Positions 11,903 through 34,258 of a stretch of DNA of 64,000 bases are shown here, in pieces (within the stretch, counting starts at the first letter, position 1; each line of letters begins with the position of its first letter). The stretch is from positions 2,309 through 66,308 of the forward strand of contig JAQTQO010000003.1 in assembly GCA_028712155.1 (NCBI GenBank). The letters run 5' to 3'. A program made the translations under genes and the position numbers. This stretch comes from Patescibacteria group bacterium. GTDB lineage: Bacteria > Patescibacteriota > Patescibacteriia > Buchananbacterales > GWA2-38-13. The notes under the pieces are model-generated. The model saw only the letters and a list, made by a program, of their open reading frames with translations. It made no database searches and was not told the origin of the DNA.

Positions 11903-11931
11903 TTGACAAACCGCGTGGTTTCAAGTACATT
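11903..11931 (+). promoter_or_regulatory. sigma70-like promoter TTGACAAACC-N13-TACATT
   Basis: -35 at 11903-11908, 17-nt spacer, -10 'tacatt' at 11926-11931; nearly identical to the promoter at 13130. Confidence 0.5.
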
Positions 11932-12008
11932 ACGTTATTGTTTTCGCGGTTTACGGTGAAATCCATTCGAGGCGGTTGTTCCTTGTTTGGCCAGAAAGGA
12001 TGGTACTG

Positions 12009-12290
12009 ATGGTCGGTGAGTTGGGATCCGGTGGCGTTGAACCCCGTTGCCCGTATCACGAATGGGGGAAACCCGGCGGGAGTATGTTCGACAACCCGTT
12101 GTGGTTTATCGAACGGCTCATGGGGTTCGCCGTTGTCGCTTTGTGCGTCATCTGTGTCGTGTGCGCGCTCATTCCGCCCGTTACGTTTCTCTTGGTGTGG
12201 CTGCTCATCGGCTTCAAGAGCGCGGCAATTGCCGGTGCGCTGGCGGCGATCACGGTGATCGTTGCCTTTAAACGGTTTATCCGTTCATAA
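12009..12290 (+). CDS. small Cys-containing two-TM membrane protein (paralog A)
   Basis: SD 'AAAGGATGG' then ATG 12009; 'RCPYHEWG...DNPLWFIERLMGF' followed by two hydrophobic helices. Confidence 0.55.
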   Translation: MVGELGSGGVEPRCPYHEWGKPGGSMFDNPLWFIERLMGFAVVALCVICVVCALIPPVTFLLVWLLIGFKSAAIAGALAAITVIVAFKRFIRS

Positions 12291-12313
12291 CGGTGTTCCT
12301 TGCGAAGCGTCGA

Positions 12314-12342
12314 ATGCCTGGCAGTTGCCGGGCATTTTTTTG
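12314..12342 (+). terminator. intrinsic terminator
   Basis: Stem 'atgcctggc'/'gccgggcat' (one GU wobble), loop 'agtt', then T7. Confidence 0.75.
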
Positions 12343-12359
12343 CGTTATTTCGCCTCCTC

Positions 12360-12415
12360 TTGACAACGCCAGTGATTTGCGGTAGACTGCCGGTGTGGCA
12401 TAGATAATCATCTAT
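12360..12415 (+). promoter_or_regulatory. arsR promoter (TTGACA-N17-TAGACT) with candidate ArsR/SmtB operator palindrome
   Basis: -35 at 12360-12365, -10 at 12383-12388, inverted repeat 'atagat-aatc-atctat' at 12400-12415 between the -10 and the arsR ATG. Confidence 0.55.
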
Positions 12416-12434
12416 ATATAATAACAAATCATTT

Positions 12435-12692
12435 ATGAAGCAGAAATGCCTGGGGTGCCTGCAAGCGGTGGCGGTCGAGACGCGTTTTAATATTTTCCAG
12501 TACTTGCGGAAATTACGGGGCAAGGCAACGGTGTCAAAACTGGTGGAGCTGACCGGGCTGCGCCAGCCGACGGTAACGTTTCATGTGAATGCGCTGGCGG
12601 AGGCCGGATTGGTCAAGAAAACGCGCGTCGGGAAGAATGTGTTCTGTCGGCTGCAGGAGCAATGTGCGGATTGTCCGCTGTTTGTTTCCTGA
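12435..12692 (+). CDS. ArsR/SmtB-family metalloregulatory transcriptional repressor
   Basis: Winged-HTH 'TVSKLVELTGLRQPTVTFHVNALAEAGLV'; Cys pairs at both ends (CLGC, CADCP). Confidence 0.8.
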   Translation: MKQKCLGCLQAVAVETRFNIFQYLRKLRGKATVSKLVELTGLRQPTVTFHVNALAEAGLVKKTRVGKNVFCRLQEQCADCPLFVS

Positions 12693-12736
12693 AGGGTTTT
12701 GAGGCATCTCGGAGCGCGAGTGAGGGGGTGAGAACT

Positions 12737-12901
12737 ATGGACAAAACGATGAACAAAATAGAGTGCGATCCGTCTTGCGGATTTATGGTGCAGAGCCACG
12801 ATGAAAAGGAAGTAACGGGGATGGCGATGTCGCATGCGAAGAACATGCACAAGATGGACGTATCGGAGCACGATATGCGCAAGCGCATGATGTCGGTATG
12901 A
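12737..12901 (+). CDS. DUF1059 small metal-binding protein
   Basis: 'KIECDPSCGFMVQSHDEKE...HAKNMHKMD' matches the DUF1059 Cys/His pattern; SD 'GAGGGGG' before the ATG; 44 nt after arsR. Confidence 0.6.
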   Translation: MDKTMNKIECDPSCGFMVQSHDEKEVTGMAMSHAKNMHKMDVSEHDMRKRMMSV

Positions 12902-13129
12902 TCGGAAGTTTTTCACACGCACCACTGGCGCCAGCGAGTGCATCGTTCTTTCAAGTGCGTTCCATGGAGACTCGGTTGCCGATCCCAATGGGCGCATGTA
13001 AGCAACAATCCACGGATACACAGCCCCGCGATCGAGATACGGCCGTTTGATGCCAGTCGCGGGGTGGCGGCCGTGGAATCTGTAACGCCCAAACGTTGTT
13101 TTTTATTTTGTCTCAAGTATCTCATCAAA

Positions 13130-13158
13130 TTGACAAACCAGTCCGTTTGTCTTACATT
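13130..13158 (+). promoter_or_regulatory. sigma70-like promoter TTGACAAACC-N13-TACATT
   Basis: -35 at 13130-13135, -10 'tacatt' at 13153-13158. Confidence 0.5.
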
Positions 13159-13201
13159 GACGGGCTTCGCACCTTCGAACTTTTCGGGAAAGGATGTGGT
13201 T

Positions 13202-13447
13202 ATGGTCCATAGCGAAGGAGACGGTTGCGCGCGCCAATGCAGCGAGCCTGACTGCGACAGTCTGGCCGACAACCCCTCGGGGTTTTTGGCGTTCTTGTAT
13301 CTCCTCATCCTCGTCATCCCGGCGGTCATTATCGTCGCACTCGTCACCGGCGGTGTCTGGCTGTTCTGGGGGTCCACCCCCGCCCTGATCGCCGGCGGCG
13401 TCACGCTCGTCGTTGCCGCCGGAGTCGTGTGGTGGTTTGCGCACTGA
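13202..13447 (+). CDS. small Cys-containing two-TM membrane protein (paralog B)
   Basis: SD 'GAAAGGATG' then ATG 13202; 'GCARQCSEPDCD...DNPSGFLAFLYLL' followed by two TM helices. Confidence 0.55.
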   Translation: MVHSEGDGCARQCSEPDCDSLADNPSGFLAFLYLLILVIPAVIIVALVTGGVWLFWGSTPALIAGGVTLVVAAGVVWWFAH

Positions 13448-13471
13448 TCGGTCGCGCTCATTGCAGAATAA

Positions 13472-13503
13472 TTGCCTGACGTATCCGCCGGGCAATTTTT
13501 TTG
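13472..13503 (+). terminator. candidate intrinsic terminator
   Basis: Weak stem 'ttgcct'/'gggcaa' followed by T7. Confidence 0.4.
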
Positions 13504-15811: not shown

Positions 15812-18385
15812 ATGCCAGATCTCGATGCGCGCATCCTTGCCCGGGGTTTATCCGATGAGCAAGCGGTAAAACGGTTAACTGAAGAAGGGTACAATGAACT
15901 GCCGACTGCAAAGCGGCAGTCAATTTTGCGTTTAATTCTAGAAATCGCCCGCCAGTCGATGTTTTTGCTCCTCATCGCCTGCGGTTCGCTCTATCTGGTG
16001 CTCGGAGACATCACGGAGGCACTGCTGCTGCTGAGCTTCGTTTTCGTGGTCATCGGCATCACCTTTGTTCAAAAACGAAAAACCGAGCGGGCACTGGACG
16101 CCTTGCGGGAACTGTCGAGTCCGCGGGCGCTGGTCGTACGGAACGGCCGGCGGCAGCGGATCGCCGGCCGCGAGGTCGTGCGCGACGATATCGTGCTGTT
16201 GTCCGAAGGCGATCGCGTACCGGCTGATGCGGTGCTGCTGCGATCCACCAACGTCAGCGTGGATGAATCACTCCTGACCGGCGAATCCGTACCGGTGCGA
16301 AAGGTGGTCTGGGACGGCAAGCTGACCATCGGCCGTCCCGGCGGTGACGACCTTCCGTTCATCTACTCCGGCACCATGGTGGTGCGCGGGCAAGCCATCG
16401 CGCAGGTGCGCGCGACCGGGCCGCGGACGGAAATCGGAAAAATCGGGAAAGCGTTGCAAATCCTTGAGCCCGAGGGTTCCGATCTCCAGCGCCAGACGGA
16501 TCGGATCGTCAAAATATTCGCGTTCGTCGGACTGTGCCTGTGTTTTTTTGTCGTGGTGGGTTTCGGTTTGACGCGGGGCGATTGGTTGCACGGGTTGCTG
16601 GCGGGATTGACGCTCGCCATGGCGACGCTCCCGGAAGAATTTCCGGTAGTCATGACCATTTTTTTGGCGCTGGGTGCGTGGCGGATCGCCAAGCGGAAAG
16701 TGTTGACCCGCCGCATGCCGGCCGTGGAAACGCTGGGTGCAACGACGGTGCTCTGCGTGGACAAAACCGGCACCATCACCCTCAATCGCATGTCGGTGGC
16801 GAAGGTGTGCGTGGAGGGGCACGTGCATGACGTGGGCACCGACCAGGGGAGCCTGGCGGAAAACCTCCATCAGATCGTCGAGTACAGCATTCTTGCCAGC
16901 CCGAGCGATCCGTTTGATCCGATGGAACGGGCGATGCAGGAGCTCGGCGCGCGTACCCTGGCGCACACCGAGCACCTGCACAGCGACTGGAAGCTCCTCC
17001 GCGAGTATCCGCTTACCGATAAGTTGTTCGCGATGTCGCGCGTGTGGCAGTCGCCGGACGGCGAGGACTACGTTATCGCGGCCAAGGGTGCGCCGGAAAC
17101 GATTGCCGACCTCTGTCATTTCGATGCGGCGCGTTTGGCCGACCTGGAGCGGCAGATCGAGCAGATGGTCGTCCATGGCTTGCGTGTGATCGGTGTGGCG
17201 AGCGCGCACTTCCGCCATTCCGCGCTCCCGCCGACGCAGCACGATTTTCCATTTACATTTCTCGGTTTGCTGGGGTTGGCCGATCCGGTGCGTCCCGGCG
17301 TACCGGAAGCCGTTGCCGAATGCGCGTCGGCGGGAATCCGCGTCATTATGATCACCGGCGATTATCCGGGGACGGCAAAAAATATCGCGCAGCAGATTGG
17401 ACTGAAACCGGTTCACCACATTATTACCGGATCGGCGCTTGACGCTATGGATGACGTCGAGCTGCAGCGGCGCATCCATACCGCGTGCATCTTCGCCCGC
17501 GTCGTGCCGGAGCAGAAGCTGCGCATCGTGAACGCGCTCAAGGCGAACGGCGAGGTGGTGGCGATGACCGGTGACGGCGTCAACGACGCTCCGGCGCTCA
17601 AGGCGGCGCACATCGGTATCGCGATGGGCGGCCGCGGCACGGACGTCGCGCGGGAGTCGGCGTCAATGGTGTTGCTCGACGACAACTTCGCTTCGATTGT
17701 CGCAGCCATACGCATGGGCCGCCGAGTGTATGATAATCTCAAGAAGGCCATCGTCTACATTTTTTCCGTGCATATTCCCATCGCCGGCATGTCGTTACTG
17801 CCGGTTTTGTTCAAATGGCCGCTGGCGCTGCTCCCGGTGCACATCGTGTTTTTGGAGCTCATCATTGATCCGGCCTGTTCGATTGTTTTTGAGGCCGAAC
17901 GGAGCGAGAAGGACGTGATGCGGCGCAAGCCGCGGCATCTCAAGGAACCGCTGTTCGGGCGCGCCATGGTTTTCCTCGGGCTCGCCCAGGGCCTGGGGAT
18001 TTTGACGATGGTCGCCGGCGAGTATGCGCTGGCGCTCGCCCTGGGCTTACCGGCGGGGGAGGCGCGGGCGTTCGCGTTCGTCAATTTGCTCATCGGCAAT
18101 CTCGGCTTGATCGTGGTGAACCGTTCGTGGACGCGATCGACCTGGGCAACGCTGAAGACGCCCAATCCCGCGCTCTGGTGGGTGGCCGGTGGGGGGGTGG
18201 GGTTTCTCGCTGCGGCACTCACCATTCCGTGGCTGCGGGCCATATTCGGTTTTGCGACGTTGCATCCCATGGATTATGCGCTCAATATGATGACCGCCCT
18301 CATGATCATCCTGATATTGGAAGGCTTTAAATTTCCCGCGGTGCAACGCTGGTTCGCTGCGGCGCACAAGCGCAAAAAACCTTAG
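15812..18385 (+). CDS. cation-transporting P-type ATPase (type II, Ca2+/Mg2+-like)
   Basis: Phosphorylation site 'CVDKTGTITLNRM', 'TGES', 'MITGD', hinge 'MTGDGVNDAPALKAAHIGIAMG'; 857 aa with 10 TM. Confidence 0.9.
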   Translation: MPDLDARILARGLSDEQAVKRLTEEGYNELPTAKRQSILRLILEIARQSMFLLLIACGSLYLVLGDITEALLLLSFVFVVIGITFVQKRKTERALDALRELSSPRALVVRNGRRQRIAGREVVRDDIVLLSEGDRVPADAVLLRSTNVSVDESLLTGESVPVRKVVWDGKLTIGRPGGDDLPFIYSGTMVVRGQAIAQVRATGPRTEIGKIGKALQILEPEGSDLQRQTDRIVKIFAFVGLCLCFFVVVGFGLTRGDWLHGLLAGLTLAMATLPEEFPVVMTIFLALGAWRIAKRKVLTRRMPAVETLGATTVLCVDKTGTITLNRMSVAKVCVEGHVHDVGTDQGSLAENLHQIVEYSILASPSDPFDPMERAMQELGARTLAHTEHLHSDWKLLREYPLTDKLFAMSRVWQSPDGEDYVIAAKGAPETIADLCHFDAARLADLERQIEQMVVHGLRVIGVASAHFRHSALPPTQHDFPFTFLGLLGLADPVRPGVPEAVAECASAGIRVIMITGDYPGTAKNIAQQIGLKPVHHIITGSALDAMDDVELQRRIHTACIFARVVPEQKLRIVNALKANGEVVAMTGDGVNDAPALKAAHIGIAMGGRGTDVARESASMVLLDDNFASIVAAIRMGRRVYDNLKKAIVYIFSVHIPIAGMSLLPVLFKWPLALLPVHIVFLELIIDPACSIVFEAERSEKDVMRRKPRHLKEPLFGRAMVFLGLAQGLGILTMVAGEYALALALGLPAGEARAFAFVNLLIGNLGLIVVNRSWTRSTWATLKTPNPALWWVAGGGVGFLAAALTIPWLRAIFGFATLHPMDYALNMMTALMIILILEGFKFPAVQRWFAAAHKRKKP

Positions 18386-33347: not shown

Positions 33348-33466
33348 TGTGCCGGCGCCTGGAACATGGTTGCCGGTCACCGCCAGATGTTGACAAACCG
33401 GCCGGGTTTGGCGTAGTATATCGTATGCCGATGTTGGTAATCCAACAGGTTAATTATTAAGGGAAC

Positions 33467-34258
33467 ATGCGACCTATGAAATTTATCGAAGGTTTGCCGT
33501 CCAAGACCGCGTTTTGGCTCGGGGCGGTCGGCGGAATGCTCACCGTATTGGCGGTGGGGTTTCTCGTGACGTTACCGATGGTGCTGGCCGGTACCGGCGG
33601 ATCCGGCGGCAACGATACCGTGATTGCCGCTAAAGCGACCCCCAGTCCGGGAAAAGTCGCCGGGGCGGCGAATACGCCCGCGCCGGGTGGACTCCCGGCA
33701 GCCGGCGAAGTAACGCCGGTGACCTCAAGCGATCACGTTCTGGGTGATATCAACAAAGCCAAGGTGTTTTTGATCGAGTATTCGGACATGGAGTGCCCGT
33801 ACTGCCAGCGGTTCCATGCAACGATGCACGAAGCGATGAAAACGTTCGGTACGGATGTCGCGTGGGTCTACCGGCACTTCCCGCTGTCGTTCCACGCCAA
33901 CGCGGAGAAAGAAGCGGAAGCTTCGGAATGTGCGGCGGAGCTGGGCGGTAACCAGGTGTTTTGGAAGTACATCGATGCGATCTACGAACGGACGAAGACC
34001 GGCGGGACCGGATTTGCGCTTGATCAACTTGCCCCGTTGGCCAAGGAGCTTGGATTGAACGAAGCGAAATTCAAAACTTGTCTGGACAGCGGCAAGTACG
34101 CCCAAAAGGTGCAGGACATGATGTCGGGCGGCGAAGCCGGCAGCATTACCGGTACGCCGGGAACGATTTTGCTCACCCGGAGCGGTGAGAGCGGCGTCAT
34201 TTCCGGCGCACAACCGCTTGAACAGCTGAAGGCGTCGGTGAACCAGTACCTCAAGTAG
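33467..34258 (+). CDS. DsbA-family thiol:disulfide oxidoreductase, membrane-anchored
   Basis: N-terminal TM, thioredoxin-fold active site 'CPYC', 'VFLIEYSDMECPYCQRFH'. Confidence 0.8.
   Translation: MRPMKFIEGLPSKTAFWLGAVGGMLTVLAVGFLVTLPMVLAGTGGSGGNDTVIAAKATPSPGKVAGAANTPAPGGLPAAGEVTPVTSSDHVLGDINKAKVFLIEYSDMECPYCQRFHATMHEAMKTFGTDVAWVYRHFPLSFHANAEKEAEASECAAELGGNQVFWKYIDAIYERTKTGGTGFALDQLAPLAKELGLNEAKFKTCLDSGKYAQKVQDMMSGGEAGSITGTPGTILLTRSGESGVISGAQPLEQLKASVNQYLK

Follow-up and report, generated by a model that had tools for sequence, protein, structure and literature searches.

What do two very small membrane proteins do on either side of a predicted metalloregulator operon, and are they part of the system that the operon serves? 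The question is raised by a 64,000-nucleotide (nt) stretch of a Patescibacteria metagenome-assembled genome (GenBank assembly GCA_028712155.1, contig JAQTQO010000003.1, positions 2,309 to 66,308), which is called the window below. Two mini-genes, here named A and B, flank an operon that encodes an ArsR/SmtB-family repressor and a DUF1059 mini-protein. The original prediction described the region from 11903 to 13447 as a small metal-responsive module with duplicated membrane components. We are highly confident that A and B are real, paralogous coding genes, and that they belong to a new protein family; their involvement in metal or redox handling is a tentative proposal. Both predicted open reading frames (ORFs) are present in the window and begin with ATG:

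12009-12290, plus strand: mini-gene A, 93 amino acid residues (aa), ATG start at 12009; one Cys and one His in the head, DNP motif, two transmembrane (TM) helices, CxxCxxC in the first TM helix (TM1)
13202-13447, plus strand: mini-gene B, 81 aa, ATG start at 13202; head cysteines C9, C13 and C18, DNP motif, two TM helices

Coding status and paralogy of the mini-genes

The in-frame coding scores of A and B are 0.29 and 0.23 bits per codon, respectively, on a scale where real genes have a mean of 0.35 (standard deviation 0.14) and the 95th percentile of off-frames is 0.18. The record of the National Center for Biotechnology Information (NCBI) contains B as a protein of 81 aa (PHI63_00870), and A as a protein of only 68 aa that starts at Met26 (PHI63_00855). 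The 25 N-terminal residues of A that were dropped by the public annotation (12009-12083) align with the head and linker of the family described below. In particular, the HEW of the head of A aligns with NEAW and NEDW of the family linker, and the Shine-Dalgarno sequence of A is homologous to those of its orthologs. Therefore, A does begin at 12009 and encodes 93 aa, and the 68-aa entry is a truncated version. The same length of 93 aa was obtained for A in an independent, Prodigal-type gene call made on a Logan contig.

The proteins encoded by A and B share about 29-38% sequence identity (29% according to BLASTP, E = 0.005). The Smith-Waterman score of the pair is 57, compared to 33 +/- 6 for sequences in which the head and TM segments were shuffled separately (p about 0.0025), which bears out the proposed paralogy. 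At the DNA level, the two genes show in-register similarity in two places, namely around the DNP motif, where 75% of 32 nt agree, and where the second TM helix (TM2) ends. The protein alignment, the in-register DNA similarity, and the matching promoters and terminators described below therefore argue for the duplication of a whole expression cassette. The comparison indicates that A and B are diverged paralogs, and that the duplication took in the promoter, extended Shine-Dalgarno sequence, coding DNA, and terminator.

Hydropathy and AlphaFold2 agree on a helical hairpin, as expected for proteins with the two TM helices that had been predicted in both A and B. In B, the helices are formed by residues 25-56 and 58-80, and the head is disordered; the model, calculated with a five-row family alignment, has an overall predicted local distance difference test score (pLDDT) of 69, with helix values of 70-85. 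The short Cys-containing cytoplasmic head attributed to both proteins is present in B, with three cysteines, whereas that of A contains only one Cys and one His; the placement of either head on the cytoplasmic side is an assumption. The remaining three cysteines of A (C46, C49, C52) are all located in TM1, and the TM helices of B do not contain any. The DNP motif is shared by A and B as described, but in the wider family only its aspartate is invariant.

A family of five sequence clusters

When A and B were compared to 5.8 billion proteins in a word-seeded search, the only matches were A and B themselves. Taken alone, this result is the lack of homologs that the original prediction had named, as an alternative to the lack of coding-type substitutions, as an observation that would speak against it. 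An exhaustive HMMER search, in which a profile of A and B was compared to 1.84 billion cluster representatives, identified three further clusters: P0008 (92 aa, E = 5.7e-9), P0009 (91 aa, E = 2.6e-5), and P0010 (94 aa, E = 1.9e-4). In tblastn comparisons, P0008 is 46% identical to B (E = 2e-13) and 31% identical to A (E = 4e-4). Identities to the three clusters are 37-46% for B and about 31% for A, and the clusters are mutually about 50% identical.

The heads of P0008-P0010 are acidic and contain three to five cysteines around a (P)C-x4-C core, followed by an N-E-x-W-E linker. After the linker come (L/V/I)-D-(N/S/D)-(P/R)-S-G, TM1, (V/T)-W-L-x-F-G-(F/I)-(K/T)-x-A-(L/M)-I-(A/V)-G, TM2, and W-W-(L/F)-L-(R/C). 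Features shared family-wide are the acidic, disordered N-terminal head, the D-(N/S/D)-(P/R)-S-G junction, and the tight helical hairpin, the turn of which contains W-L..G...A.I.G that is invariant across the five members. The Cys pattern of the head is usually C-x3-5-C-x4-C, with at least three cysteines.

Pairwise Nei-Gojobori comparisons of the mini-genes gave proportions of nonsynonymous differences (pN) of 0.27-0.46 and of synonymous differences (pS) of 0.51-0.70. Codon position 2 differs least, and position 3 differs most in most gene pairs. Because pN is lower than pS and the codon positions follow this pattern, the mini-genes diverge as coding sequences under purifying selection. The selection is relaxed relative to that on the DUF1059 gene (nonsynonymous divergence, dN, of 0.16-0.18). 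Both the homologs and the coding-type substitutions thus speak for the genes. The DNA sequences of the six contigs that carry P0008 (L067-L072) are identical, and therefore provide no population-level information about selection.

Searches of Pfam, NCBIfam, PHROGs, PADLOC, and PDB sequences did not assign the mini-proteins to any family, and a scan of viral contigs with the family alignment did not find any member. The shared length and layout, the invariant D...WL..G...A.I.G, and the coding-type divergence mark A, B, and P0008-P0010 as a new family. It is a clade-restricted, fast-evolving family of membrane proteins of 81-94 aa, of which five sequence clusters are known. Small membrane proteins are systematically under-annotated, and here the public annotation of one mini-gene is truncated, and no described family includes either of them. 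These real, conserved, cassette-duplicated, and fast-evolving ORFs add a new micro-protein family for Patescibacteria, a group in which, to our knowledge, membrane biology and metal handling are almost unknown.

Expression cassettes of the mini-genes

The control elements of the two mini-genes are as follows:

11903-11931, plus strand: promoter of A, -35 TTGACA (extended to TTGACAAACC), 17-nt spacer, -10 TACATT
11994-12003, plus strand: extended Shine-Dalgarno sequence of A, GAAAGGATGG
12312-12341, plus strand: intrinsic terminator of A, hairpin at 12312-12337 with stem GCCTGGC/GCCGGGC, then T7; -20.7 kcal/mol
13130-13158, plus strand: promoter of B, TTGACAAACC, 17-nt spacer, TACATT; inverted repeat GACAAAC-N6-GTTTGTC inside
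13186-13196, plus strand: Shine-Dalgarno sequence of B, GGGAAAGGATG
about 13463-13503, plus strand: intrinsic terminator of B, hairpin and T7; -18.7 kcal/mol

Each mini-gene is thus a monocistronic unit complete in itself, which starts with a strong promoter of the sigma-70 type, carries an extended Shine-Dalgarno sequence, and ends in an intrinsic terminator. A terminator for each gene had been predicted, and both are found as a hairpin followed by T7; that of B falls just beyond position 13447, where the originally described region ends. The 15-nt terminator arm GCCGGGCAWTTTTTT occurs in the window only at these two terminators.

A promoter scan showed that the promoters of A and B each match the consensus at 10 of the 12 positions. 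The exact combination TTGACA-N17-TACATT is found at only these two sites in the window, where about 0.15 would be expected even with one mismatch, and the two promoters share the longer pattern TTGACAAACC-N13-TACATT. The near-identity of the promoters, including the extended -35, the spacer, and the -10, is therefore real, but the extension is not specific to the mini-genes. The 10-mer TTGACAAACC has four copies in the window, compared to about 0.12 expected (2 x 64,000 / 4^10). A third promoter-like site, TTGACAAACC-N13-TAGTAT at 33390-33418, is located upstream of a gene starting at 33467; TTGACAA is read by eight of the eleven strong promoter-like sites in the window; and the arsR promoter of contig L075, which carries P0010, contains TTGACAAAC. 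Because of these occurrences, the -35 extension is best regarded as a habit of the lineage. The full match between the promoters of A and B reflects common descent and not a shared operator.

Inverted repeats span the -35 and spacer in both promoters, GACAAAC-N6-GTTTGTC in B (13132-13151) and AAACC-N4-GGTTT in A (11908-11921); no comparable repeat is apparent by eye in the orthologous promoters. The repeats could be a site for a different regulator or could have arisen by chance.

The -35 and the 17-nt spacing are preserved across the cassettes, including the orthologous ones of contigs L067, L073 (which carries P0009), and L075. All five cassettes retain the Shine-Dalgarno core GGAAAGGATGGTG, which is presumably the complement of the 3' end of 16S rRNA. 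The terminator stem GCCTGGC/GCCGGGC followed by a T-run is invariant in all five cassettes from four lineages, and GTTCCTTGCG, just before the stem, is also invariant in most copies. The 3' flanks compared were 12296-12341 and 13470-13503 of the window, 6283-6333 of L067, 1030-1075 of L073, and 3953-3985 of L075. The flanks of the cassettes are more conserved than the coding sequences, the encoded proteins having drifted to 30-50% identity. The flanks of the orthologs resemble those of A more than those of B. The cassettes of A and P0008-P0010 have a long 5' untranslated region (UTR), and examination of the mini-gene 5' UTRs did not identify a conserved structure.

The arsR-DUF1059 operon

The operon between the two cassettes consists of the following features:

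12360-12388, plus strand: promoter of arsR, TTGACA-17-TAGACT; the counterpart in L075 is TTGACAAAC...TATACT
12400-12415, plus strand: predicted palindromic operator of arsR, ATAGATaatcATCTAT, ATAGAT-N4-ATCTAT
12435-12692, plus strand: gene of a minimal ArsR/SmtB-family repressor, 85 aa, N-terminal CxxC and C-terminal CxxCP
12737-12901, plus strand: gene of the DUF1059 mini-protein, 54 aa; Cys10, Cys14, His21, His33, and His38 are conserved in orthologs

The ArsR protein matches the Pfam models HTH_20 (38.9 bits, cut-off 27) and HTH_5 (37.1 bits, cut-off 22) and the NCBIfam model HTH_metalloreg (58.7, cut-off 55), and ArsR chains from the PDB match at E = 1e-4. The score of the DUF1059 protein against PF06348 is 24.9 bits (cut-off 21.1, E = 2.4e-5), and its orthologs in L073 and L075 are 69-73% identical. 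The palindrome, with the consensus ATAGAY-N4-RTCTAT, is kept upstream of arsR at four loci (the window, L075, L001, and L003). It is positioned between the -10 and the ATG wherever a promoter is recognisable, and it occurs once in the window. The earlier description of an ArsR/SmtB gene with a palindrome in its own promoter, followed by DUF1059, is therefore upheld, and the palindrome is a predicted autoregulatory arsR operator with good comparative support.

Minimal ArsR proteins of 84-85 aa are encoded in the window and at L001, L002, L003, L004, and L075; all four of their cysteines, in an N-terminal CxxC and a C-terminal CxxCP, are invariant. Close homologs of the ArsR among the 5.8 billion proteins amount to five matches, including P0003, which is the protein of the window itself. 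The surroundings of the four non-self homologs (P0004-P0007) contain neither a DUF1059 gene nor a mini-gene, and are unrelated to those in the window. In L004, the gene next downstream of the homolog encodes a SufC-like ATPase, a hint of iron-sulfur or redox sensing.

A structured element between DUF1059 and B

The spacer between the operon and cassette B contains an element that the earlier note overlooked:

12924-13080, plus strand: conserved structured element, non-coding, about 160 nt; T-rich tract 3' of it at 13095-13110
13010-13076, plus strand: main hairpin of the element, CCACGG...GCCCCGCG...CGCGGGGU...CCGUGG, long and invariant

The element is 71-78% identical to the equivalent spacers at 412-575 of L073 and 3275-3425 of L075. 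It folds better on the plus strand (-43 kcal/mol) than on the minus strand (-34 kcal/mol), and its G-U pairs are invariant. The folding z-scores are -1.0, -3.8, and -3.8. In the consensus structure, which was derived from the same alignment of three sequences, 93.5% of cells are paired and eight pairs show compensatory changes. The possibility that the element is a small ORF was ruled out, since the reading frames of the window and L075 are offset by a 1-nt indel, and an early stop is present in L073. Rfam 15 does not contain a match at the gathering score over the whole window, or at E <= 10 for the region, L073, and L075.

Because a T-rich tract follows the element at all three loci, the element is most simply explained as the 3' UTR of the arsR-DUF1059 transcript. 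It is probably a structured 3' UTR of this transcript, or a small RNA derived from that 3' UTR, and is a candidate for a new RNA motif. Metagenomes were scanned with an 18-base pattern taken from the element; the 66 resulting loci were all chance matches inside unrelated protein genes.

Gene order in the window and its relatives

The region of the window consists of five plus-strand units: cassette A, the arsR-DUF1059 operon, the 230-nt spacer, cassette B, and QueH. The minus-strand genes upstream of cassette A encode an EamA transporter and a DUF6390 protein, and QueH is followed by a Memo/AMMECR1 fusion and a cation ATPase. The neighbours downstream of B and the gene orders in the relatives are:

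13577 onwards, plus strand: QueH, gene 3' of cassette B
15812-18385: P2-type cation-transporting ATPase with Cation_ATPase_N and Cation_ATPase_C domains, 2.4 kilobases (kb) downstream of B
L075: NTP-transferase, HlyIII, 12-Cys 70-aa ORF, arsR (uncalled), DUF1059, conserved element, P0010, QueH
L073: arsR (cut), DUF1059, element, P0009, 207-aa membrane protein, 74-aa zinc-ribbon-plus-TM ORF, TspO
L067-L072: NTP-transferase, HlyIII, Cys70, P0008; without arsR, DUF1059, or the element

A B-type gene adjoins arsR-DUF1059 in three of the four lineages. The gene order therefore identifies B as the positional ortholog of both P0009 and P0010. The QueH of L075 is 78% identical to that of the window. 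Mini-gene A is a lineage-specific extra copy, located in the slot that is held elsewhere by Cys70.

Cys70 is a 70-aa ORF with 12 cysteines (CxxC...C...C..C.C..C..C...C..C) and its own terminator, found at 5548-5760 of L067 and 2459-2665 of L075. It lies directly upstream of P0008 in L067 and of arsR in L075, which is the position of cassette A in the window, and it does not match any model in Pfam or NCBIfam. In L073, the region 3' of P0009 contains an ORF of 74 aa (2036-2260), in which a zinc-ribbon-like CxxC...CxxC head precedes a single TM helix; it is followed by a TspO-like gene (2515-2859). A scan of the genome collection anchored on QueH did not identify close relatives (48% identity at best) and gave no information on synteny.

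Possible function of the mini-proteins

Based on the family features and the gene order, a function of the mini-proteins can be proposed. A and B would be abundantly made, membrane-tethered thiolate ligands, probably oligomeric. The B type might bind a soft metal, metalloid, or redox-active cofactor on the surface of the membrane, and the A type might do so inside the bilayer. Both may share one homeostasis task with the Cys-rich ArsR sensor and with the DUF1059 protein and its Cys and His residues, while being outside demonstrable ArsR control. The entire cassette was duplicated in this lineage. B, like its orthologs, has its place downstream of the arsR-DUF1059 operon, which is predicted to be autoregulated, and of the structured 3' element of this operon. 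A, the extra copy upstream of arsR, still has the flanks and linker of the ancestor, but its head no longer contains the cysteine cluster, and a CxxCxxC has arisen in TM1. As a whole, this is the best explanation of the locus that we can offer, and we offer it tentatively. Its functional core, in which the mini-proteins are anchored in the membrane and provide thiolate ligands for a metal, a metalloid, or a redox cofactor or signal, is possible but doubtful.

The proposal is consistent with a cysteine theme that runs through the locus: the heads of the mini-proteins have three to five cysteines, ArsR has the invariant CxxC...CxxCP, DUF1059 has conserved Cys and His residues, and a 12-Cys ORF accompanies P0008 and P0010. 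The module of the original prediction stands in so far as A and B are paralogs in autonomous cassettes, arsR-DUF1059 lies between them, and the adjacency recurs in L073 and L075. Its regulatory part found no support, since the mini-genes have no ArsR operator, they are separate transcription units, and the P0008 lineage has no arsR-DUF1059; its metal role was drawn only from Cys content.

Several observations weigh against the thiolate-ligand proposal. The ArsR operator, even when up to 2 mismatches are allowed, is not found near the promoter of either mini-gene, and therefore nothing in the sequence places A or B in the ArsR regulon. In the P0008 lineage (L067-L072), the mini-gene is not accompanied by arsR or DUF1059. 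Neighbouring proteins of the four lineages are 73-83% identical, which makes these lineages fairly close relatives, so the shared gene order may be inherited and not selected. The mini-proteins do not match metal-binding families in Pfam, NCBIfam, or the PDB. The head of A has a single Cys; the acidic head would equally fit an outward-facing N-terminus, as the charge distribution does not fix the topology; and conservation and model confidence are both lowest in the head.

The mini-proteins could instead be unrelated neighbours of the operon, that is, small membrane proteins of a generic kind and with high expression, which might for instance organise the membrane or serve the envelope, and whose adjacency to arsR-DUF1059 is inherited synteny. 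The independence of the mini-gene promoters and terminators, the missing operator, the P0008 locus without arsR and DUF1059, the similarity of the flanking proteins, which makes the gene order evolutionarily young, and the unrelated contexts of ArsR homologs elsewhere are all in keeping with such a view. It fits less well with the retention of three to five head cysteines in four of the five members despite their fast divergence, and with the recurrence of small Cys-rich ORFs at the locus (Cys70, DUF1059, and the 74-aa zinc-ribbon-plus-TM ORF). We consider the unrelated-neighbour explanation somewhat unlikely.

By analogy with KdpF, MgtS/MgtR, and sarcolipin/phospholamban, the mini-proteins might be accessory micro-subunits or regulators of a larger transporter, with their hairpin docking on its TM helices; the candidate is the P2-type ATPase encoded 2.4 kb downstream of B. 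B weakly matches residues 427-478 of the CopA model (E = 3e-4), with 19 bits against a cut-off of 1316, P0008 weakly matches residues 124-182 of the generic P-type ATPase model TIGR01494 (E = 0.02), and the family profile aligns to residues 343-380 of Legionella CopA (PDB 3rfu, E = 1.6). All three sub-threshold matches fall on one M3-M4 hairpin region, and the small-residue motifs of the mini-proteins (A.I.G, GG) are typical of helix packing. However, every match is far under the curated cut-offs and in hydrophobic segments, the ATPase of the window has no similarity to the mini-proteins and is not co-transcribed with their genes, and the contigs L067, L073, and L075, which are short, do not encode an ATPase. 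A role as transporter micro-subunits is improbable.

The thiolate-ligand proposal can be extended to a compact circuit limited to this clade of Patescibacteria (CPR bacteria), in which the four-Cys ArsR would sense a metal, metalloid, or redox signal, a new structured RNA derived from the 3' UTR together with DUF1059 would control or partner the thiolate mini-proteins as a new class, and A, having shifted its cysteine cluster out of the soluble head, would relay across the membrane by its TM1 cysteines. We regard this circuit as a long shot.

The structured element directly upstream of B, P0009, and P0010 might also be seen as the antitoxin of a type I-like system in which the mini-proteins damage the membrane, since they are small and hydrophobic and the cassettes of A and P0008-P0010 have a long 5' UTR. 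Type I toxins are typically short single-helix peptides, usually under 60 aa, whereas the mini-proteins have 81-94 aa, two TM helices, and a soluble head. Furthermore, the mini-genes have a strong promoter and a near-perfect Shine-Dalgarno sequence, and A and P0008 have no adjacent element. A crude duplex-energy test of the element against the mini-gene mRNAs gave no excess complementarity (z about 0; -2 in one locus, on both strands), and searches with PADLOC and PHROG did not result in a match. A toxin function is very unlikely. The last alternative, spurious ORFs with a chance match to the sigma-70 consensus upstream, is suggested by the self-only result of the word-seeded search and by TTGACAA being a common -35 extension in this genome, but is almost certainly wrong and appears effectively refuted already by the homologs of the same length and layout in three other lineages and the coding-type substitutions, next to which stand the gene-like coding scores, the conserved Shine-Dalgarno sequence and terminator, and the exact -35/-10 combination that is unique to the two sites in the window.

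If the heads do bind metal, as the thiolate-ligand proposal would have it, the mini-proteins would be metal ligands of minimal size that are anchored in the membrane and work beside an ArsR that is itself unusually small. As it stands, the locus is a tidy but ordinary orphan-gene case, the functional story of which is unproven.

Comparison with known systems

The central operon is of the ordinary ArsR/SmtB kind. It shares with autoregulated operons of this type a winged-helix repressor of the HTH_5/HTH_20 families, a palindromic operator between the -10 and the start codon, and a co-oriented gene of a small Cys/His protein. It differs by its unusual, minimal repressor of 85 aa, the four cysteines of which, CxxC...CxxCP, form a set that we take to be distinct from the classical alpha3N or alpha5 sites.

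MerF, MerE, and MerT are inner-membrane mercury-uptake proteins of about 80-116 aa with two or three TM helices, which function by Cys pairs, located either in a TM helix or in a short soluble segment, and are encoded beside a metal-sensing repressor. The mini-proteins resemble them as small membrane proteins encoded beside an ArsR-type repressor, and the CxxCxxC in TM1 of A resembles an intramembrane thiol relay. In contrast to the mercury-uptake proteins, A and B do not match any mer family in Pfam or NCBIfam (E <= 1-5), and they do not contain a vicinal CC or CPC pair; C46, C49, and C52 of A are not vicinal, and B-type proteins have no TM cysteines. Neither merA nor merP is a neighbour of the mini-genes, the promoters of which lack the operator of the repressor.

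In the YgaV-YgaP system, an ArsR-family repressor adjoins a membrane protein with a two-TM DUF2892 hairpin and reactive cysteine chemistry. The likeness is that of a small ArsR-family repressor next to a short, Cys-bearing, two-helix hairpin protein. A and B differ from YgaP in that they match neither DUF2892 nor rhodanese, are separate transcription units instead of parts of one operon, and have other head and turn motifs.

The micro-subunits of P-type ATPases (KdpF, MgtS/MgtR, sarcolipin, and phospholamban) have a single TM helix. Like them, the mini-proteins are very small, hydrophobic, and encoded near a P-type ATPase, and their profiles repeatedly, though weakly, resemble the M3-M4 hairpin of P1B ATPases, as illustrated by 'vvWLlfGfktAliaG' and 'IVWALLGPQPALSYG' of Legionella CopA. 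The differences are that the mini-proteins have two helices, that the scores are far below the cut-off, and that the ATPase near B is of the P2 type and not P1B.

Every membership test for MerF/MerE-type and YgaP-type proteins was negative for A and B, and, by analogy, the mini-proteins may at most work like these small Cys-bearing membrane hairpins. A and B are best filed as a new orphan family, of the general kind of small Cys-rich membrane proteins encoded beside a metalloregulator.

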